A stretch of DNA of 59,845 bases, from contig CAZPGN010000001.1 in NCBI GenBank assembly GCA_964586635.1, forward strand, positions 11,087-70,931, in the 5' to 3' direction. A program made the position numbers and the translations under genes. Origin of the DNA: an uncultured Candidatus Saccharibacteria bacterium (lineage in GTDB: Bacteria > Patescibacteriota > Minisyncoccia > Phycocordibacterales > CAZPGN01). This document shows, one piece after another, positions 12,683-39,419 of the stretch; the first letter of the stretch is position 1; every line of letters begins with the position of its first letter. The notes beneath the pieces are model-generated. The model saw only the letters and a program-made list of their open reading frames with translations. It did no database searches and was not told where the DNA came from.

Positions 12683-13327
12683 ATGAAAGTAAACATTGTC
12701 TATCTCTTCGGATTATTCGAGAATCACACCGATTCTCTCTTTACATATCTTAAGAAAAATACCGTACATATTGAATGGTGTGGTATTGAATTATACCCAG
12801 AATCAGAATTTGGCTCCTACTCCTTTGCTGAGGAAATGAAAAGGATACAAACCATCATTGACGATATACGCCCTGACATGCTGGTTGCCCATAGTCTCGG
12901 CGCGTATGTTTCAGCACAATTAGTTTTTAATTGCCCTGTCGTTTTTCTAGAACCGTCTCTTGCCATTTCTGATATTGTCCTGCCAAACACAAAACATGGG
13001 AACAACGGGTCTCTGTACGATGACGGGAAACACAAAGTCAAACTATCAACTGAATTTGTAGAATCAATCAAGCTAATGCCGTCAATTAAAGAATTGGCTT
13101 ACTCTTCTAAATTATCGAGTGAGGATGTGTGCATTATAGGAGCTGGGAAAGGAGGACATATCATAGCCCGTCAGTACTGTATACCGAGTTCGCGCTATGT
13201 CTATTTTCCTAATGCCAACCATATGTTTTCGGGTGGAAAAGAAAGGCGGAAAATATTATCACTTATAAAAAAGCGGCTCGACATTATACCGGGCCGCGTA
13301 AGAGATGTTTGCACAATATCTCCGTGA
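12683..13327 (+). CDS. Small alpha/beta-hydrolase fold protein, AT-rich
   Basis: AHSLG nucleophile elbow and C-terminal ANHMF His; ~33% GC by hand count of 12661-12780; TGaTACAAT 6 nt before the ATG. Confidence 0.7.
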   Translation: MKVNIVYLFGLFENHTDSLFTYLKKNTVHIEWCGIELYPESEFGSYSFAEEMKRIQTIIDDIRPDMLVAHSLGAYVSAQLVFNCPVVFLEPSLAISDIVLPNTKHGNNGSLYDDGKHKVKLSTEFVESIKLMPSIKELAYSSKLSSEDVCIIGAGKGGHIIARQYCIPSSRYVYFPNANHMFSGGKERRKILSLIKKRLDIIPGRVRDVCTISP

Positions 13328-15421: not shown

Positions 15422-17056
15422 TTACTGCAAGGCATTTTGGGACAGAAGTTTTTCCTGAACGCCAGCAGGCAATGAGATGGTGAATGTAGCGCCCTTGCCC
15501 TTCCCGGCGGACTCTGCCCATATGGTTCCGTTATGCGCATCGACTATATTTTTGGCTATATAGAGACCAAGTCCAGTGCCGCTCGTTTTCGCCTTAGCGG
15601 CATCGGCGCGATTGAACTTTTCAAAAAGGCCGTCAATGTTTTCAGGCGAGATTCCGGCGCCGGTATCCTGAATAGATAGCAGAATTACTCCGTCGTTTCG
15701 GCTTAGTGATATATGCACTTTCCCCCCACTTGTATATTTCAGGGCATTGTCCAGGAGATTCAATACGACCTGTCGAATTTTTTCGGAATCAAGCGTCGCC
15801 GTGAAGTCTTTTTTCTTATCCATCGTCAATGTAAACGATAGGCCAGTCTTTTCTATCGCCGGCTTCTGTGATTCGATGGTTTCGCGCAAAAGTCTTCCAA
15901 GATCGGTAGCCTCAAAGTGAAACTTTAGCTTACCAAGTTCAATTCTGGATATATTGAGAAAGTCATCGATTACCGAGACAAGCAGTTGACTAGACTGGAA
16001 AATCTTGTCAACAGCCCCACTCACTTTTTCACCCATTGCACCGAAGGATCCTTCAAGGAGCATAGACGAGTAGCCCTTTATCGCCGTGAGTGGAGAGCGG
16101 AATTGATGCGATGCCATCGAAAGGAATTCGGTTTTTTGACGACTTAATTCCTGCAACTGTTGATTAGCCCCGGCCAATTCACCTGCCAAATGCTCAATCC
16201 TCTCCCGCGATTCAACCTCTTTCAACACAGAGCGGATAAGCAGGATGCCGAAAATCGTAGTAAGGACTAAGAATACAGAATTTACAATTAGATCGCTAGT
16301 TTCAACAGACAAAAATGTTCGAATTAAAATTCCTATCCACATCAAGAAGGTGATTATCTCTGTTGCGATAACCTTGAGATTAAATAAATGATGCTTAACA
16401 ACAGCATAAGCGATGGAAATAATCATTATTATTGTGAAAATCGGTCCAAGCCAAATGTAACTGTAATTGTTAAACCAGGGGAGGATTATATTAAAGATAA
16501 TTCCAAAAAACCATGCGACAGATGTCCCAACAATAATAAAACGATATTGAGCTTTCTCAATATGGTTAGTTGCCTTCCTGTATCCATTTAAAAGATTTTC
16601 AAATGCTGCACTAAGGTAAATAAAGAGAAAAATTAAGAAAAAAGCGTAATTTACAGTATCGATACTTACAGATTTTTGAGTGCCATTTAGCGTGATGTCT
16701 TTAAGGAATAGATATTTATTTGATAGAAACAGGATTGAAAGGAAAATTGATGGAGTGACAACGATAAAGAAATCCAGGGCATCGAACTTTTTCTTTGCGG
16801 GGAATACCCGTGAAAACAATAAAAAAAGGCTTACGAATGTGGCCCCAATAACATAATACGAATTCGCGAAGAAATATGCTGAATCAACTGACGTTGCGTT
16901 CAAAAAAAGAGCTAAACCCAGTGACCAAAATGACAATAATACAACAAATAAACCGAAAACCTTGCCAACAAGATTCTTTTGTCCTAACACTACTAGAAGT
17001 GCTAGAAAACTATTGAGAATCGAGATTATAAATAGAAAAGTTGTCTTAATCTCCAT
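15422..17056 (-). CDS. Membrane sensor histidine kinase with a 7TM (HisKA_7TM-like) input domain; no adjacent response regulator
   Basis: Multiple TM helices in the first ~280 aa; H-box SHQFRSPL, N-box NLLDNALKY, G1 DTGAG, F-box FEKF, G2 GTGLGL. Confidence 0.92.
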   Translation of the reverse strand: MEIKTTFLFIISILNSFLALLVVLGQKNLVGKVFGLFVVLLSFWSLGLALFLNATSVDSAYFFANSYYVIGATFVSLFLLFSRVFPAKKKFDALDFFIVVTPSIFLSILFLSNKYLFLKDITLNGTQKSVSIDTVNYAFFLIFLFIYLSAAFENLLNGYRKATNHIEKAQYRFIIVGTSVAWFFGIIFNIILPWFNNYSYIWLGPIFTIIMIISIAYAVVKHHLFNLKVIATEIITFLMWIGILIRTFLSVETSDLIVNSVFLVLTTIFGILLIRSVLKEVESRERIEHLAGELAGANQQLQELSRQKTEFLSMASHQFRSPLTAIKGYSSMLLEGSFGAMGEKVSGAVDKIFQSSQLLVSVIDDFLNISRIELGKLKFHFEATDLGRLLRETIESQKPAIEKTGLSFTLTMDKKKDFTATLDSEKIRQVVLNLLDNALKYTSGGKVHISLSRNDGVILLSIQDTGAGISPENIDGLFEKFNRADAAKAKTSGTGLGLYIAKNIVDAHNGTIWAESAGKGKGATFTISLPAGVQEKLLSQNALQ

Positions 17057-17058
17057 TT

Positions 17059-17961
17059 TTACTTCTTTGCAACGAGCACATGGTGGATTCGTAGTGGTTC
17101 ATAAATCGCGCGCATTTTATTCGGCTGGAATCCAGATTTTAACGCAAGATCGATGAGCTCTTCTGTGCTTCTATAAATCATTTTCCAATTTACTAAATTG
17201 GTTACGAAACGCCTTTCAATATTATCATCAATGTTGGCTATTATCATTACCCCACCATTTTCTAGACTATTATAAATCACTGACAGTACCTTGACCACCT
17301 GTAAATCATCAAAATAATCCAACAAACCCACCATTTCGACGATATTTATCTTGTCTTTATGTGTTAAATGAGCTGGGAAATTGGAGGCAGTATCTACAAT
17401 CCATCGTAATCTGAATTGTTTTGGGCATATCATCGCAAGACTTTTACTATACTCAATAGCTTCTGGGTTTTTATCCAGAAAAATAACGGATACCCTCAAT
17501 TTTTTAGGTATTTTAAGTCTGGACATTGCTTCGATTACCGCCCGAGCCGACCCGGAAGCAATACTAAGGAGGCCAATATTGACATCTTGTTTTACAAGCT
17601 TCTTTGCTGTATTTCTGATTATTTTCTTAACTAGTCTTAGTCGATTACGCGCCGCCTTTGCATTTATTGTACTGAACCATAGCTTATGCGCTATGGCCTC
17701 AGCCCAGTTAGAAGTTAGATGTGGGTGGCCACCGCTATAAAGTACCTCTAGTGCCTCATGTGTCGTTGCTTTATTGATGACGATTTCTGCGCCTCGATGG
17801 GTTTTTTTTACAAAACCTCCGAGTATTGAAGGGAGTAGATTAATCAATGGAATGATTAATAGATTCAACACACCCCTAGTAGGTCCGATTTTTTCATAAC
17901 CTGCGGCGCTGTCATCGTCAACAGAAATTCTTACTCCTTTATGAATCCATTGATCCCTCAT
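17059..17961 (-). CDS. Class I SAM-dependent methyltransferase, PhcB-like by motif resemblance
   Basis: AKAARNR, LLSIASG, FLDKNPEA, GLLDYF, GG.MIIAN, WKMIYR; AGGAG SD inside the plsC 3' end; stop is 2 nt before the kinase ATG. Confidence 0.75.
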   Translation of the reverse strand: MRDQWIHKGVRISVDDDSAAGYEKIGPTRGVLNLLIIPLINLLPSILGGFVKKTHRGAEIVINKATTHEALEVLYSGGHPHLTSNWAEAIAHKLWFSTINAKAARNRLRLVKKIIRNTAKKLVKQDVNIGLLSIASGSARAVIEAMSRLKIPKKLRVSVIFLDKNPEAIEYSKSLAMICPKQFRLRWIVDTASNFPAHLTHKDKINIVEMVGLLDYFDDLQVVKVLSVIYNSLENGGVMIIANIDDNIERRFVTNLVNWKMIYRSTEELIDLALKSGFQPNKMRAIYEPLRIHHVLVAKK

Positions 17962-18640
17962 AATCTCCTAAAAGCCCTATCTCATTTATTATCAAACTAG
18001 ATATTGATAGCAACTTACTGAAATCGTCCTTGGTTTTTTGATAGACACGATCTCTATGATTGAGAAAAGTTCTTCCAATACGCACTTCGATTCTATGCTT
18101 TCTTAGGAAAAAACGCGATGGGGTGAGACCAAAGGAACCTGTGATGGCGATTGGGATAATGACGGCGCCTGTTTTTTCAACAAGGTAACCGATGCCGGGT
18201 TTGCCCTCGTGCAGTTTACCATCCGGCGTTCGCTGACCTTCAGGAAACATCAATAATGTCCCGCCGCGCCGTAGGAGTTTTACATGGTCTTTAAGCGCTA
18301 CATCATAATCTCCTGTTCCGAGAGGCGTGGAGATGCCGCCAAGAACACTGAACACGATATCGCCTATGATGTATCTGAAGAACGGCATCGAGCGATAGTG
18401 TTCCTTGCTCATTGCCATGTAGAATATTGGATACAATGGCGAAAATAGTCCTGGCGCCACAGAGACGAGAAACGGGTCCATCCACGTTATGTGATTCGAC
18501 GCAAGAATAACACCATGAGACCCGTCGACATTGGCAAGATTTTCGGCTCCTCGTATCCGCAAGCGCACAAAGAAGATAAACAGGATGCGTAGCGGCGCCC
18601 ATACGAGTTTCTCAAAAATATATGGGAGAGCTTGCTTCAC
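17939..18640 (-). CDS. Lysophospholipid acyltransferase (PlsC family)
   Basis: NHITWMD (HxxxxD), FPEG, PIAI.G; GTG start. Confidence 0.9.
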   Translation of the reverse strand: MKQALPYIFEKLVWAPLRILFIFFVRLRIRGAENLANVDGSHGVILASNHITWMDPFLVSVAPGLFSPLYPIFYMAMSKEHYRSMPFFRYIIGDIVFSVLGGISTPLGTGDYDVALKDHVKLLRRGGTLLMFPEGQRTPDGKLHEGKPGIGYLVEKTGAVIIPIAITGSFGLTPSRFFLRKHRIEVRIGRTFLNHRDRVYQKTKDDFSKLLSISSLIINEIGLLGDYEGSMDS

Positions 18641-18658
18641 TGTTTTATGCCGCCTTGG

Positions 18659-19711
18659 TTAGAGAATAATCGGGGTGAGTAGGCGGGCGAATGCTCGTGC
18701 AAGGGGGTAGTACCAGCGCTCTGCATAGATGTCGTCATTGAAAATAGTGGCAGATTTTTTCCACAGCGAGATGATTCTGTTCAGGTCGCGTAGCATTTTC
18801 TTGTCGCTAAACAATACTCCCACCTCCATTGTAACACCAAAGCTGACAGGATCTGTATTCTGGCTTCCAACTATTGCCCGTTCTTCGTCAATGACTAGCG
18901 CTTTTGCGTGTATCATATCTGACGAGAAATGAAATGTGATGCCAGTGGACGCAAGTTCGCGAGCGAATATGCGATGAAATACATTGATATATCTCGGATC
19001 GGTATGTAACGGAAGCACGATGTCTATACTGACATTTCTCCCGCGCGCGGCTCGCAGGGCAGATGACAACCAGCGAGGGGGGATGAAATATGGCGTGACG
19101 ATTACAATTTTGGAATTCGCTTCGTCGATAAGTTCTCGGTATTCCTTTGGGAAAGTCGGTTGTCCTAAATTAGGCCAGTGCTCGAGAATACGCATATGAG
19201 TCTTTCGCAATCTCTGACGCAATGGTGATGCGTGGGCATAGGCGAGAATGCGAGTATCCTTGCCGCCACAGAGTTCATAAAAACGCGCGACAGACCGTAG
19301 AAGCGGCTTTGTTGCAGACCCCGTTATTCGCATATGCAGGTCTGTCCATTTTCTATATTCATCACCGATATTAACGCCACCAATAAACGCGATCTTTTCA
19401 TCGACAATGAGGATTTTGCGATGCGTTCGATACAATATGTGGTTGTAGAAGATTACTTCTGCTCCAGCGGCACGGAGCTTTTCCTGCGTAGCCCGATTGA
19501 ACCAGAGACTACCGAAGCCGTCCGCGACTATCTTTACGGATACTCCCGCTGACGCTTTAGCCTCGAGCGCGGCAATAAAGTCGTGCGTGAGGCGCGTATC
19601 ATTGTTGAAAATATAGATTTCCCAATATATTGAATGGCCCGCACGCTTGATAGCATCAAGCATGGCAGTCCATGCCGCCTCGGAATTGATATAAAATTTA
19701 TATTTTCTCAC
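18659..19711 (-). CDS. Phospholipase D superfamily, ClsB-like cardiolipin synthase without N-terminal TM helices
   Basis: Two HKD motifs: HRKILIVDEK...GGVN and HAKALVIDEE...GSQN; starts 3 nt after the dnaJ stop. Confidence 0.9.
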   Translation of the reverse strand: MRKYKFYINSEAAWTAMLDAIKRAGHSIYWEIYIFNNDTRLTHDFIAALEAKASAGVSVKIVADGFGSLWFNRATQEKLRAAGAEVIFYNHILYRTHRKILIVDEKIAFIGGVNIGDEYRKWTDLHMRITGSATKPLLRSVARFYELCGGKDTRILAYAHASPLRQRLRKTHMRILEHWPNLGQPTFPKEYRELIDEANSKIVIVTPYFIPPRWLSSALRAARGRNVSIDIVLPLHTDPRYINVFHRIFARELASTGITFHFSSDMIHAKALVIDEERAIVGSQNTDPVSFGVTMEVGVLFSDKKMLRDLNRIISLWKKSATIFNDDIYAERWYYPLARAFARLLTPIIL

Positions 19712-19714
19712 GAA

Positions 19715-20797
19715 TCATATCCCCTCCTCGCGAAGTTCCTCGGCAAGTTTTCGAACTTTGCGAGAAAGATGTTGGGGGGTCGCGATATTGAGCCGAACGA
19801 AGAGGTCGCCTGTCTTGCCATTCAGCGGAACACCCTTCCCGCGCACGCGCAATGTCTCCCCATACGAAACGCCAGCAGGTATTTTAAGTGTGATGGATGA
19901 ACTGTCGAGAAGCGCCACAGGATACTCCGCGCCAAGAAGCGCATCACTCAACTTAATAGTGAGCTCCATCACAAGGTTCACCCCATCGCGCCTCCACTCG
20001 GAATGCGGTTCCACATGTATTTTGGCATAGAGATCGCCTGCCATGCCGCCTGGTATCGATTCCCCTCGGCCCGTTAGTCGTATCATTTCCCCATCTCCAA
20101 TACCGGCGGGCAAAGTAATTGCGATTTCCTCGCTTCTCTTCGCTACGCCATGGCCGCCGCATCTCTTGCAGGGCTTCTTGGGTATTTCTCCCTTGCCGAA
20201 GCATGTATCGCATGTTCGCTCCGTGGTGACATTGCCAAGGAGCGACCGCCGTGCCTCACGGAGTCTGCCCTTACCGCCACAGATGGTGCATTTTGTCATC
20301 GCAGAGTCAGCTTCCTTGCCACTCCCCTTGCATTCATCGCAGACACCAACCTTATTTATGAGAACGGTTCGTTTGGTGCCGTAAATCGAGTCTGCAAATG
20401 ATACCTGCAGATCTATAGAAATGTCTCTGCCTCGCGGTTGGCGTCGCGCTCTGCCCCCACCGAAGAACTCGCTGAATATATCCCCAAGATCAACATTTTG
20501 AAAATCCCCAGCGCCAGTAAAATCAAACCCGGAGAAATCAAAGCCGTTAAAGCCGCCGCCCGGCGGCGCACCAGCAGTATCGCCAAAGACACGGCCGTAT
20601 GTGTCATATTCAGCGCGTTTTTTATCATCCGATAGCACTTGATATGCCTCGTTCACTTCCTTGAAGCGTTGGTCGTCAGCCGATTCGTTTTTGTCGGGAT
20701 GGTATTTGTGCGCCATCTTTCGGAAGGCCTTTTTGATGTCATCCTTGGAGGAATTTCGCTCCACGCCAAGAATTTTGTAGTAATCCTTGTTATTCAT
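19715..20797 (-). CDS. dnaJ: Chaperone DnaJ (class A)
   Basis: J domain with HPD, G/F region, four CxxCxGxG repeats. Confidence 0.97.
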   Translation of the reverse strand: MNNKDYYKILGVERNSSKDDIKKAFRKMAHKYHPDKNESADDQRFKEVNEAYQVLSDDKKRAEYDTYGRVFGDTAGAPPGGGFNGFDFSGFDFTGAGDFQNVDLGDIFSEFFGGGRARRQPRGRDISIDLQVSFADSIYGTKRTVLINKVGVCDECKGSGKEADSAMTKCTICGGKGRLREARRSLLGNVTTERTCDTCFGKGEIPKKPCKRCGGHGVAKRSEEIAITLPAGIGDGEMIRLTGRGESIPGGMAGDLYAKIHVEPHSEWRRDGVNLVMELTIKLSDALLGAEYPVALLDSSSITLKIPAGVSYGETLRVRGKGVPLNGKTGDLFVRLNIATPQHLSRKVRKLAEELREEGI

Positions 20798-36710: not shown

Positions 36711-39242
36711 CTAGGCAGATTTCTTTTTGAGGGCGCGTTTCAAATACTTCGCTGTATGTCCATTCCCTTCCAGCGCGACTTCTTCGGGTGTTCCTGCCGC
36801 AACCAATTTCCCGCCTCCCGCACCGCCCTCCGGGCCCATGTCAATTATATAATCGGCTGATGCGATGACATCCATATTATGTTCGATAGTTACCACGCTG
36901 TTCCCTTTATCTACGAGCTTCTGGAGCACCAAAAGAAGATTTTTCACATCATCATAATGAAGACCGATCGTCGGCTCGTCGAGAAGGTAGATAGTTTTCG
37001 CGATGTGTTGACGATACAATTCGGAGGCGATCTTGATGCGTTGACTTTCGCCGCCAGAGAGGGTGGTGGATGGTTGGCCAAGTTCGAGGTATCCAAGACC
37101 TACCTCCTCGACAACCTTCAGGCGGTCTGAAATCGCCGGAATATCTTCGAGAAAGGCATGGGCCTCCTCAACGGTCATCCGCAATATGTCATAGATGTTT
37201 TTATCCCGATATGCAATCTCGAGGGTTTCTTTCTCAAACCTTTTGCCGTGGCACACATCGCATGTTACATAGACTGTGGGCAAAAAATGCATCTCTACCG
37301 CAACAAGACCGTTGCCTTGGCATGCCTCACATCGCCCACCTTTCACATTAAAAGAGAAGCGTCCAGATTTCCAGCCACGCACGCGCGCCTCTGGCGTCGC
37401 GGCAAACAGATCTCGGATATGCGTCCACGCGCCGATGTAGGTTGCGGGATTTGAACGCGGGGTCCTGCCGATCGGCGACTGGTCTACTAGCACAACACGC
37501 GAGAGGTATTCGGCCCCGAGAAAATGCGCACAGTTATAGGTGTCATTACTCCGATACCGCCGCTCATATTTAGCTTGCAGATTCTTATTCAATATCTCAT
37601 AAAGAAGCGTTGACTTTCCTGAACCTGATACCCCGGTGATGGCGACGAATTGGCCAAGCGGCATGTCAAGCGAGAGATTTTTTATACTGAATATTTTCCC
37701 TCCACGAATCTTGAGTACCCCTTTATTCTTTTCGCGCCTTGCCTTCGGCATCTCTATTCTCTCTTCATCTCGCAGATATTTCAGCGTGCGAGATTCAATC
37801 ATATTCCGCTTCGCAGTGATTAGTTTTTCGGTCTGACCGGCGACCACAACATGGCCGCCATGTACACCCGCACCCGGCCCGATATCCACGAGATAGTCAG
37901 ATGCGAAAATAGTGTCCTCGTCATGTTCGACAACAATGATGGTATTGCCAGCATCCGCAAGTCCACGCAGGGTTTTAATCAGACGCTCGTTATCGCGCGA
38001 GTGCAAGCCAATGGTTGGCTCGTCTAATACATAGAGCGCCCCAACAAGACGCGAACCAAGCTGGCTTGCGAGTCGTATGCGCTGGGCCTCACCGCCAGAG
38101 AGAGTATGAGCGCGACGGTCTAGCGTGAGATATTCCAGGCCAACGCCCATCATAAATGCAAGACGACTTTTTATCTCCTTCGTAACTGGCAATGATATTT
38201 CCGTTTCCATCCTCGATAGTTTCAGCTTTTCAAAAAACGCATGCGCCTTCTCGATTGACAGCGAGGAAAGCTCTACGATATTTTTCCCACCTATTCGAAC
38301 GGCAAGCGCTTCTGGCCGAAGACGCTGGTTGTTGCATACCCCGCACAGCTCCTCGCCGAAAAAGTGCTTCGTGCCAAGTCCGTGACATTCAGGACATGCT
38401 CCATACGGCGAGTTGAAGGAAAACAGTCGTGGTTCGACTTCGATGAAGGAAAATCCATCTCTCGGGCAAGTAAATGAAGTAGAGAAAATCTTCTCCGAGC
38501 CATCAAGACGAACGCGCACGACCCCATCAGCCTCTCGCAAGGCGTATTCAACATCCTCTGTCAGGCGTTCGCGAAGTCCTTTCTCATTGCTTCCGTAATC
38601 GTCTGTATTCACCGTATCAATAACTACATCGATGTCGTGTTTTTTATTCTTATCGAGCACGATGCGTTCGCGAAGACTATGAACATTTCCTTCGATGAGC
38701 ACCCGCTGGTATCCTTTGCCGAGTAGGTCGTAGAGAAGCTGGTAATACTCCCCTTTTCTGCCGCGCACAACGGGCGCGAAGATGGCGACTGATTTTACGC
38801 CGTCTTTTTGAGCTCCTGCGGCAATGAAATTGACGATTTCTTCCTTGGAGACTCGGGTTATCGATTCCCCGCAAAGAAGGCAGTGTGGAACCCCAACTCG
38901 CGCATAAAACACGCGCATGTAATCGTATATTTCAGTTATCGTTGCGACTGTTGAGCGAGGATTGTTCGAGCGCGATTTCTGGTCAATTGAGATGGCGGGG
39001 GAAAGGCCGGTAATCTCATCCACATCGGGTTTTTGCATCTGGCGCAAGAATTGGCGCGCGTATGCGGACAAACTCTCTACATACCGCCGTTGACCTTCAG
39101 CGAAAATGGTGTCGAATGCAAGCGACGACTTTCCTGAACCCGAAAGTCCTGTAAAAACCACGAACTGATTTCGCGGTATATCAAGGTCGATATTCTTCAA
39201 ATTGTGCGTCCGAGCGCCCTTTATGCGAATTGCGTCTTCCAT
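36711..39242 (-). CDS. uvrA: Excinuclease ABC subunit A, lacking the insertion domain
   Basis: GARTHNLKN, two Walker A motifs (GLSGSGKSS, GVSGSGKST), LSGGEAQR/LSGGESQR; start at ATG 39242 (MEDAIRIK). Confidence 0.97.
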   Translation of the reverse strand: MEDAIRIKGARTHNLKNIDLDIPRNQFVVFTGLSGSGKSSLAFDTIFAEGQRRYVESLSAYARQFLRQMQKPDVDEITGLSPAISIDQKSRSNNPRSTVATITEIYDYMRVFYARVGVPHCLLCGESITRVSKEEIVNFIAAGAQKDGVKSVAIFAPVVRGRKGEYYQLLYDLLGKGYQRVLIEGNVHSLRERIVLDKNKKHDIDVVIDTVNTDDYGSNEKGLRERLTEDVEYALREADGVVRVRLDGSEKIFSTSFTCPRDGFSFIEVEPRLFSFNSPYGACPECHGLGTKHFFGEELCGVCNNQRLRPEALAVRIGGKNIVELSSLSIEKAHAFFEKLKLSRMETEISLPVTKEIKSRLAFMMGVGLEYLTLDRRAHTLSGGEAQRIRLASQLGSRLVGALYVLDEPTIGLHSRDNERLIKTLRGLADAGNTIIVVEHDEDTIFASDYLVDIGPGAGVHGGHVVVAGQTEKLITAKRNMIESRTLKYLRDEERIEMPKARREKNKGVLKIRGGKIFSIKNLSLDMPLGQFVAITGVSGSGKSTLLYEILNKNLQAKYERRYRSNDTYNCAHFLGAEYLSRVVLVDQSPIGRTPRSNPATYIGAWTHIRDLFAATPEARVRGWKSGRFSFNVKGGRCEACQGNGLVAVEMHFLPTVYVTCDVCHGKRFEKETLEIAYRDKNIYDILRMTVEEAHAFLEDIPAISDRLKVVEEVGLGYLELGQPSTTLSGGESQRIKIASELYRQHIAKTIYLLDEPTIGLHYDDVKNLLLVLQKLVDKGNSVVTIEHNMDVIASADYIIDMGPEGGAGGGKLVAAGTPEEVALEGNGHTAKYLKRALKKKSA

Positions 39243-39305
39243 ACCAATGCACGATTCCCCAAGATGATGCTTGGGGTTACTGTGTGAATATATCAAAGTT
39301 GCTCC

Positions 39306-39333
39306 AAAAAAGAAACCCGCCAAGGAGGGCGAG
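39306..39333 (-). terminator. Intrinsic terminator downstream of the tRNA-like gene
   Basis: CTCGCC-ctcctt-GGCGGG followed by TTTCTTTTTT. Confidence 0.75.
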
Positions 39334-39344
39334 CATAAACTTCT

Positions 39345-39419
39345 TCCCATCGGCAGGACTCGAACCTGCAACCTCCGATCTTTTTGAGATCGGTGTTCAG
39401 TCCATTGAACTTCGATGGG
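39345..39419 (-). tRNA. tRNA-like gene, identity undetermined (19-nt anticodon arm; A8, U21; no encoded CCA)
   Basis: CCCATCG-AA-GTTC-AATGGACT-GAAC-A-CCGATCTCAAAAAGATCGG-AGGTT-GCAGG-TTCGAGT-CCTGC-CGATGGG-A; all four stems fully paired. Confidence 0.8.

Follow-up and report, generated by a model that had tools for sequence, protein, structure and literature searches.

What joins four genes packed head to tail directly after dnaJ in the genome of an uncultured Candidatus Saccharibacteria bacterium, a phospholipase D (PLD)-like gene, an acyltransferase gene, a gene for an S-adenosylmethionine (SAM)-dependent methyltransferase and a membrane histidine kinase gene? They lie on the minus strand of a stretch of 59,845 nucleotides (nt) from GenBank assembly GCA_964586635.1 (contig CAZPGN010000001.1, positions 11,087 to 70,931), which we call the window and in which positions are numbered from its first letter. 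A reading made from the letters and open reading frames (ORFs) alone, here the sequence-only reading, had taken all four for one candidate lipid-derived signalling system resembling PhcB–PhcS of Ralstonia solanacearum and tied to the chaperone operon. Comparison across related genomes indicates that the conserved unit is (acyltransferase)–methyltransferase–kinase, with the PLD gene and the chaperone operon as neighbours and not members.

A conserved methyltransferase–kinase pair

The methyltransferase gene (17059–17961, minus strand; 300 amino acids (aa); family PF12147, Methyltransf_20) is followed by the kinase gene (15422–17056, minus; 544 aa), and its start overlaps the acyltransferase gene (17939–18640, minus; 233 aa) by 23 nt. 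The PLD-like gene (18659–19711, minus; 350 aa) heads the run, preceded by the dnaJ ORF (19715–20797). The gaps from dnaJ through the kinase are 3, 18, −23 and 2 nt; these and the gene coordinates agree exactly between our ORF calls and the sequence-only reading, and the motifs that it reported as intact (two HKD, HxxxxD, the SAM-binding loop and the H, N and G boxes) are all evident in the translations. The same boundaries resulted when genes were called independently on five further contigs with an identical methyltransferase. Such tight packing is weak evidence for an operon because short gaps are usual across this dense, co-directional window, where most minus-strand neighbours are −29 to +33 nt apart (two exceptions, 45 and 68 nt). 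With packing saying so little in this genome, the evidence for a module is comparative.

A genome scan with a single protein had found no loci, and an alignment-based scan of species-representative genomes then gave 80 methyltransferase loci (L001–L080), in which ORFs were called and searched with the window proteins. Among the 78 loci with room for the count, a kinase gene directly followed the methyltransferase gene on the same strand in 70 (~90%), and 68 of those kinases matched the seven-transmembrane (7TM) sensor; several of the eight non-paired loci had less than 1.4 kb of sequence remaining past the methyltransferase. The projected gap between the two genes had a median of ~3 nt and was at most 20 nt in 80%, and the pair was kept at methyltransferase identities down to ~30–35%. 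As controls, the commonest gene downstream of the kinase was common to 11 of 59 loci (19%), and the upstream acyltransferase was adjacent or fused in ~28 of 72 (39%). By these gene maps, the pairing stands far above background synteny. It extends to a distant 388-aa methyltransferase subfamily, which is followed by a 7TM kinase with ~220 additional residues separating the sensor from the kinase core. The arrangement is plainly not peculiar to this genome; a pairing confined to it was what the sequence-only reading had named as telling against its proposal.

The pair was also present, with the acyltransferase absent, on contigs binned as Planctomycetes (L067) and Gammaproteobacteria (L050); two non-Patescibacteria relatives nearer the PF12147 core (L069 and L079) had no adjacent kinase. 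No methyltransferase–kinase fusion was found among the best 150 cluster representatives. Extra 7TM-kinase paralogues, with no methyltransferase of their own, stood beside the pair in about nine loci, either downstream (L007, L008, L023 and L042–L044) or upstream and divergent (L020, L030 and L048), and three kinase-less 7TM ORFs lay ahead of the methyltransferase in L052. As a separate observation, seven loci (L024–L027, L031, L033 and L035) had a second, unrelated class I SAM methyltransferase of the VLDLGCGTG type right after the kinase.

A response regulator was a much less regular companion. The window has no receiver domain in any ORF, even at E ≤ 10 with a profile built from the receiver domains found at related loci, which extends to the whole 59.8 kb the remark of the sequence-only reading that no regulator lies nearby; no second kinase was found in the window either. 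A receiver was nearby in 8 of the 80 loci, and the seven that were read out were single-domain, CheY-like proteins encoded by stand-alone genes: four lie divergently upstream of the acyltransferase–methyltransferase–kinase unit, three immediately past the kinase. The kinase thus appears, from gene neighbourhood, to be linked more strongly to the enzyme than to a regulator.

Methyltransferase family and fold

The window methyltransferase matched PF12147 above the gathering threshold (31.9 bits against a cut-off of 21; residues 92–284), and its SAM loop (motif I, LSIASGSARA) and acidic residue D163 were invariant across 53 sequences. A homologue search returned 332 homologues of ~300 aa, nearly all from Paceibacteria/Parcubacteria-type Patescibacteria, with a best non-self identity of 60%; a HMMER pass over 1.84 billion cluster representatives, clustered at 50% identity, found 378 at E ≤ 1e-30 and 2020 at E ≤ 1e-10. 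On this distribution the family is centred on Patescibacteria, and the methyltransferase appears as the core of the module. A pherotype-like hypervariable region was considered and rejected, as the methyltransferase and the sensor are 53–61% identical to close relatives, slightly below the neighbouring genes.

An AF2 model of the methyltransferase (pLDDT 96, pTM 0.93) combined a Rossmann-type core with a helical lid at the N terminus. The best Foldseek match in the PDB was 3OCJ (TM 0.60, E = 2.6e-10), a Bordetella parapertussis ‘putative exported protein’; a profile of the non-Patescibacteria relatives likewise matched 3OCJ best among PDB sequences (1.3e-8). Next came natural-product O- and C-methyltransferases, the C-methyltransferase domains of polyketide synthases (PsoF, CurJ, citrinin) and the mycolic-acid methyltransferase UmaA; by sequence, the best match among solved structures was histamine N-methyltransferase. 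CheR models gave weak matches to the SAM-binding core only (E = 0.016–0.024, below cut-off). The modelled fold points to a small or lipid substrate rather than to RNA or DNA and makes protein methylation less likely. An RNA substrate, which the sequence-only reading had listed among the outcomes that would undo it, is accordingly disfavoured by the model, whose nearest folds are of the small-molecule, polyketide and lipid methyltransferase type and not of the RNA/DNA type. A hydrophobic helix at residues 31–49 is conserved.

Six family members (P0155, P0164, P0177, P0179, P0186 and P0196) had sub-threshold matches to DUF3419 (24–27 bits against a cut-off of 28.2) and to spermidine-synthase models, over part of the SAM-binding core; such matches were absent from the window methyltransferase itself. 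DUF3419 is a family that includes BtaA, the builder of the betaine-lipid head group from SAM.

A sensor within the membrane

The sensor half of the kinase (residues 1 to ~290; 16187–17056, minus strand) comprises a HisKA_7TM domain (PF16927; 46.3 bits against a cut-off of 28.6, residues 8–227) and two more transmembrane segments. The catalytic half (15422–16186, minus) holds the dimerization and phosphotransfer (DHp) domain with its H-box and the ATP-binding domain with the N, G1 and G2 boxes, all read in the translation; HisKA (PF00512; 53.8 bits, 2.1e-14) and HATPase_c (PF02518; 107.4 bits, 7.1e-31) were both above their cut-offs. The kinase is without a receiver domain, which rules out a hybrid-kinase architecture. 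Hydropathy gave about nine hydrophobic segments in residues 1–275 (ten peaks, two of them overlapping), with no loop longer than ~25 residues and no sizeable extracytoplasmic loop, and the sensor is predicted to lie wholly within the membrane. The label ‘7TM kinase’ that the sequence-only reading had used therefore holds for the domain family and fails for the helix count, which is about nine and not seven. Across 60 orthologues the sensor kept W44 and Y217 invariant, Y137 at 98% and a motif YA..LFN.K...TE. The HisKA_7TM sensor domain is already catalogued; no ligand for it was reported in the literature searched.

Base composition set the sensor half apart from the rest of the kinase. Over 16200–18000, which covers the methyltransferase and the sensor half, GC content fell to 0.33–0.42 against ~0.49 for the window, and GC at third codon positions (GC3) was 0.35–0.36 in the methyltransferase and sensor half compared with 0.47–0.54 in the kinase core and neighbouring genes (0.49 in the kinase core). 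A GC3 offset of about −0.06 to −0.07 relative to the kinase core recurred in 76–79% of related loci. The methyltransferase and the sensor domain may have been inherited or exchanged together, with a history distinct from that of the kinase core.

An acyltransferase that adjoins or fuses with the methyltransferase

The acyltransferase matched PF01553 at 65.8 bits against a cut-off of 23 (4.3e-18) and contains NHITWMD (the HX4D motif) and FPEGQRT, so that its predicted membership of the PlsC/lysophospholipid acyltransferase family is sound. Its best NCBIfam matches, the Aas-type acyl-ACP–phospholipid acyltransferase domain (3.8e-14) and AGP_acyltrn (9e-12), were both below cut-off, and it scored 44.9 against the 102.95 of the TIGR00530 subfamily. 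The nearest solved structure was Thermotoga PlsC (5KYM, 2.7e-9).

Its arrangement was counted in the 72 loci with upstream room. The acyltransferase was fused in frame to the methyltransferase in four (L027, L039, L041 and L078), adjoined it in ~24, lay 0.3–6 kb upstream on the same strand in 24, was on the opposite strand or downstream in two and was not detected in 18. Fusions were also found as single called proteins of 520–539 aa (P0134, P0135, P0194 and P0195); the first, second and third have both PF01553 and PF12147, and for P0195 only PF01553 was listed, with residues 247–534 matching the methyltransferase profile. Three proteins of 511–555 aa with the methyltransferase in their C-terminal half (P0248, P0325 and P0344) are probably further fusions. 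An AF2 model of a natural fusion had a low-confidence acyltransferase half and an overall pTM of 0.63. The link between acyltransferase and methyltransferase that the sequence-only reading had proposed is thus borne out by in-frame fusions, both in the four loci and among database proteins.

Where present, the acyltransferase varied. The window protein (17939–18640) and those of the close relatives L081 (5542–6192) and L082 (6965–7615) are 28–34% identical, compared with 61–69% for DnaJ of the same genomes and 48–70% for DnaJ, PLD and methyltransferase together; at least two acyltransferase subtypes occupy the same gene position. The interval between acyltransferase and methyltransferase was an insertion hot spot (L001–L051), holding 0.3–6 kb of unrelated cargo such as a REP-associated or IS200-like transposase (L007), HisRS, phosphoglycerate-mutase-like genes and large secreted or repeat proteins.

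The PLD gene and the chaperone operon

The PLD protein has two PLDc_2 domains (1.1e-35), with HKD motifs HRKILIVD...GGVN and HAKALVID...GSQN and no transmembrane helices. It falls short of the equivalog cut-offs (TIGR04265, 170.5 against 290 bits; ClsB, 126.5 against 281), and we class it from its domains as a PLD-superfamily, cardiolipin-synthase-like transphosphatidylase that fails the cut-offs for certified cardiolipin synthases. Its gene was found only in L073 among the 80 loci and in the close relatives L081 and L082 of the window's clade, within which it stands on either side of the acyltransferase. Restricted to one clade and variable in position, it is better seen as a peripheral neighbour than as the part of the system that the sequence-only reading had made of it.

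The chaperone genes grpE–dnaK–dnaJ stand ahead of the acyltransferase in ~20 loci. The proposed tie of the signalling genes to the chaperone operon reduces to this conserved gene order, which runs through the acyltransferase and is broken by 0.3–6 kb of unrelated genes in 24 loci. No CIRCE heat-shock operator is present.

Surroundings of the unit

The remaining large ORFs of the window are housekeeping genes, with murG, ftsW, mraY, scpAB, aspS, trpS and typA among the core genes on one side and grpE–dnaK–dnaJ, rpoD, dnaG, rpoBC, uvrABC, gyrB and pheST on the other. An Rfam scan of the window found no riboswitch or other family besides two tRNAs, and promoter and terminator scans were near shuffle expectation; no terminator-like site was found on the minus strand between the methyltransferase and kinase genes, and no convincing one separated the other genes. 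One of the tRNAs (39345–39419, minus; Rfam tRNA, 54 bits) was called Phe with anticodon AAA by ARAGORN. An alternative drawing of its anticodon arm has 7 bp in the stem and 5 nt in the loop, and position 33 would be C; the gene overlaps the start of a uvrA-like ORF (36711–39371) by 27 nt.

One of the few plus-strand genes of the run, the ORF at 12683–13327, has a low GC content (0.39–0.42) and encodes a 214-aa product with an AHSLGA nucleophile-elbow motif and weak alpha/beta-hydrolase matches (E = 0.006). Lying ~2 kb from the kinase, it could be the gene of a small esterase or lipase. None of the 80 related loci had a homologue, and the gene that follows the kinase in L081 proved unrelated to it, so that a tie between the two was rejected.

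What the unit may do

The reading that we favour, tentatively and at somewhat less than an even chance, is that a methylated, lipid-like product of the acyltransferase and the methyltransferase serves as the ligand sensed by the kinase. An enzyme–receptor pair is preferred because kinase–enzyme linkage exceeds kinase–regulator linkage, the methyltransferase fold is of small-molecule type, the enzyme can be fused to a membrane acyltransferase and the sensor lies within the bilayer. Further hints are the extra 7TM-kinase paralogues beside the pair and the lower GC3 that the methyltransferase shares with the sensor half. The PlsC-type acyltransferase, itself membrane-anchored, would cooperate with the methyltransferase at the inner face of the membrane, the two forming one polypeptide in some lineages. 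Their substrate would be an acyl compound from a phospholipid or lysolipid and their product methylated and lipophilic; the adjacent kinase, with a sensor made solely of about nine membrane helices, would detect that product inside the bilayer and signal to a small single-domain receiver, usually encoded elsewhere. Such a circuit could report cell density or contact with a lipid-donating host. We infer the substrate, the product, the binding of the product by the kinase and its leaving the cell.

Taken further, the module would be a native communication system of Patescibacteria, in which host lipid is turned into a released methylated or SAM-derived acyl signal and the kinase gauges the density of kin or contact with the host; this extension we consider possible, and on the doubtful side. 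In a bolder variant, the methyltransferase-fold protein may transfer a non-methyl part of SAM, a chemistry perhaps hinted at by the sub-threshold DUF3419 and spermidine-synthase matches in several family members.

Several points weigh against a dedicated ligand maker and its receptor. No chemistry is known for any PF12147 member, and the closest solved relative, 3OCJ, is likewise without an assigned function; our literature search found no description of PF12147 (Methyltransf_20). The methyltransferase family is apparently single-copy per genome in the species representatives, and its members, typically 42–49% identical to the window methyltransferase, look more like housekeeping genes than hypervariable pherotype loci. 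The correlation between methyltransferase and sensor distance matrices was weak (r = 0.29–0.30) and, in a 17-genome set, no better than that between methyltransferase and kinase core, so that no co-evolution signal is visible; as the distances are probably saturated, we do not count this as evidence against the pair. A place for the acyltransferase in bulk membrane-lipid metabolism would fit its links to a cardiolipin-synthase-like gene and to the dnaK operon. Finally, sparse epibionts have no obvious need of cell-density signalling.

The main alternative, a real contender although we would not bet on it, is membrane-lipid remodelling under a DesK-like sensor of membrane state. The acyltransferase would re-acylate scavenged lysolipids and the methyltransferase would methylate bulk phospholipid, on the head group or the acyl chain, and the kinase would monitor the composition or fluidity of the bilayer and adjust the system, with nothing exchanged between cells. 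The acyltransferase is PlsC/Aas-like, with a true PlsC as its nearest solved structure, and it follows grpE–dnaK–dnaJ in those ~20 loci and stands beside the cardiolipin-synthase-like gene in the window's clade. Fusion to it would tether the methyltransferase to the membrane surface, and the methyltransferase has a conserved hydrophobic helix of its own at residues 31–49. Sensors made entirely of membrane helices are typical of membrane-state sensing (DesK, LiaS), a single-copy, moderately conserved family would suit a remodelling enzyme, and Patescibacteria are thought to depend on the lysolipids of their neighbours (PMC11665869). Bulk remodelling fits less well with gene layout, however, as a kinase that governs an enzyme as its target normally keeps its regulator beside it, and here the regulator is usually absent. 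The pair also persists without the acyltransferase, both in the 18 loci where none was detected and on the two contigs binned outside Patescibacteria. An acyltransferase at 28–34% identity where DnaJ is at 61–69% would be odd for an essential housekeeping PlsC, and the folds nearest to the methyltransferase are small-molecule enzymes, not phospholipid N-methyltransferases.

Action of the methyltransferase-fold protein on or with the kinase itself, by CheR-like methylation of the kinase or as a cytoplasmic co-sensor of SAM or another metabolite, we hold to be improbable. It would account for the near-universal adjacency with gaps of 2–3 nt, which suggests stoichiometric co-production, and for a kinase–enzyme linkage that exceeds kinase–regulator linkage. 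Yet the folds closest to the modelled one belong to small-molecule methyltransferases that have a helical lid over the substrate, and protein methyltransferases match weakly and in the SAM-binding core only; the fusion partner is a lipid acyltransferase and never, among the best 150 representatives, the kinase; and no demethylase lies nearby. That the two genes are mere neighbours in an old, slowly rearranging Patescibacteria core genome is very improbable: the window is indeed a dense co-directional housekeeping run that shares some long-range synteny with L082 (TrpRS, AspRS and ScpAB after the kinase in both), but flanking genes turn over, with cargo upstream and a downstream neighbour shared by at most 19%, while the pair is kept at ~90%.

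Relation to known systems

PhcB, which makes a 3-hydroxy fatty acid methyl ester as the quorum signal of R. solanacearum, is about 467 aa long, compared with 300 aa for the window methyltransferase. The sequence-only reading had seen PhcB-like motifs in the latter; no named homologue of the methyltransferase carries a PhcB or K19620-type name, and no PhcB-like NCBIfam match appeared even at E ≤ 10. A tblastn search of plasmids with a non-Patescibacteria relative returned only a polyketide synthase and generic methyltransferases, a homologue search from L079, the relative closest to PF12147, gave 13 matches that were unnamed or bore generic methylase names, and the cluster names of the longer family members were uninformative. 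The operon structure and co-evolution of PhcB–PhcS are documented (PMC7694676, PMC6580516), and the Phc system combines a SAM-dependent methyltransferase that has a lipid-derived substrate with components that include a CheY-type receiver, PhcQ (PMC7694676, PMC6580516, PMC6989110). A published table lists PhcB as a ‘Class I SAM-dependent methyltransferase’, and the phcBSRQ genes are chromosomal (Rmet_2949-52, RSc2735-38).

The likeness to PhcB–PhcS lies in gene arrangement, a methyltransferase gene immediately upstream of a membrane kinase gene in the same direction; kinship of the two methyltransferases is conjectural and is the weakest link of the sequence-only proposal. The Phc operon carries phcR and phcQ, whereas here the regulator is usually unlinked (none in the window, adjacent in 7–8 of 80 loci). 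The present unit differs further in its nine-helix HisKA_7TM kinase, in its attached PlsC-type acyltransferase and in a host lineage thought to be without fatty-acid synthesis. That the system works like Phc in its logic is, by this analogy, a live hypothesis.

Three Vibrio systems offer a second analogy. For LuxM–LuxN, AinS–AinR and CqsA–CqsS the synthase gene adjoins the gene for a multi-helix receptor kinase, with the regulator encoded elsewhere, and LuxN has nine helices. These pairs resemble the present one in the enzyme gene beside a multi-helix kinase gene, in a lipophilic ligand (here, a proposed one) and in the distant regulator; they differ in their hybrid kinases with a receiver, in their unrelated synthase families and in their acyl-homoserine lactone or hydroxyketone products. 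DesK–DesR with the Des desaturase of Bacillus subtilis likewise couples, in the genome, a sensor kinase of membrane helices only to an enzyme that modifies membrane lipids. DesK, however, is a five-helix kinase with a DNA-binding regulator beside it, and its enzyme is the regulated target, not the maker of a ligand, with no methyltransferase involved. PlsC-family proteins of the HdtS/Act type have reportedly been proposed, in a contested claim, as acyl-homoserine-lactone synthases, and HdtS is said to have been shown later to be a lysophosphatidic acid acyltransferase. They share with the present unit a PlsC-family acyltransferase implicated in a SAM-derived acyl signal and differ in having no fused or adjacent SAM-binding partner or kinase.

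Full-text literature searches found no description of the methyltransferase–kinase pairing, and none of any two-component or quorum system that Patescibacteria tie to lipid enzymes. A recent perspective describes the lipid-handling enzymes of Patescibacteria as unidentified and is silent on two-component and quorum signalling (PMC11665869). In kind, the unit would be an enzyme-coupled sensor kinase, a known type of system; the module itself is undescribed in the literature searched.

The ultrasmall Patescibacteria account for much of bacterial diversity, have no lipid synthesis of their own and live on other cells. With at least 378 clusters at 50% identity, the module is widespread. By joining a membrane kinase to a lipid acyltransferase and a SAM-dependent enzyme, it would offer a three-gene handle on how these bacteria handle lipids and signal, and expression in E. 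coli would allow it to be assayed with no need to grow the organism itself. It would also give PF12147 and the HisKA_7TM sensor domain their first functional context.

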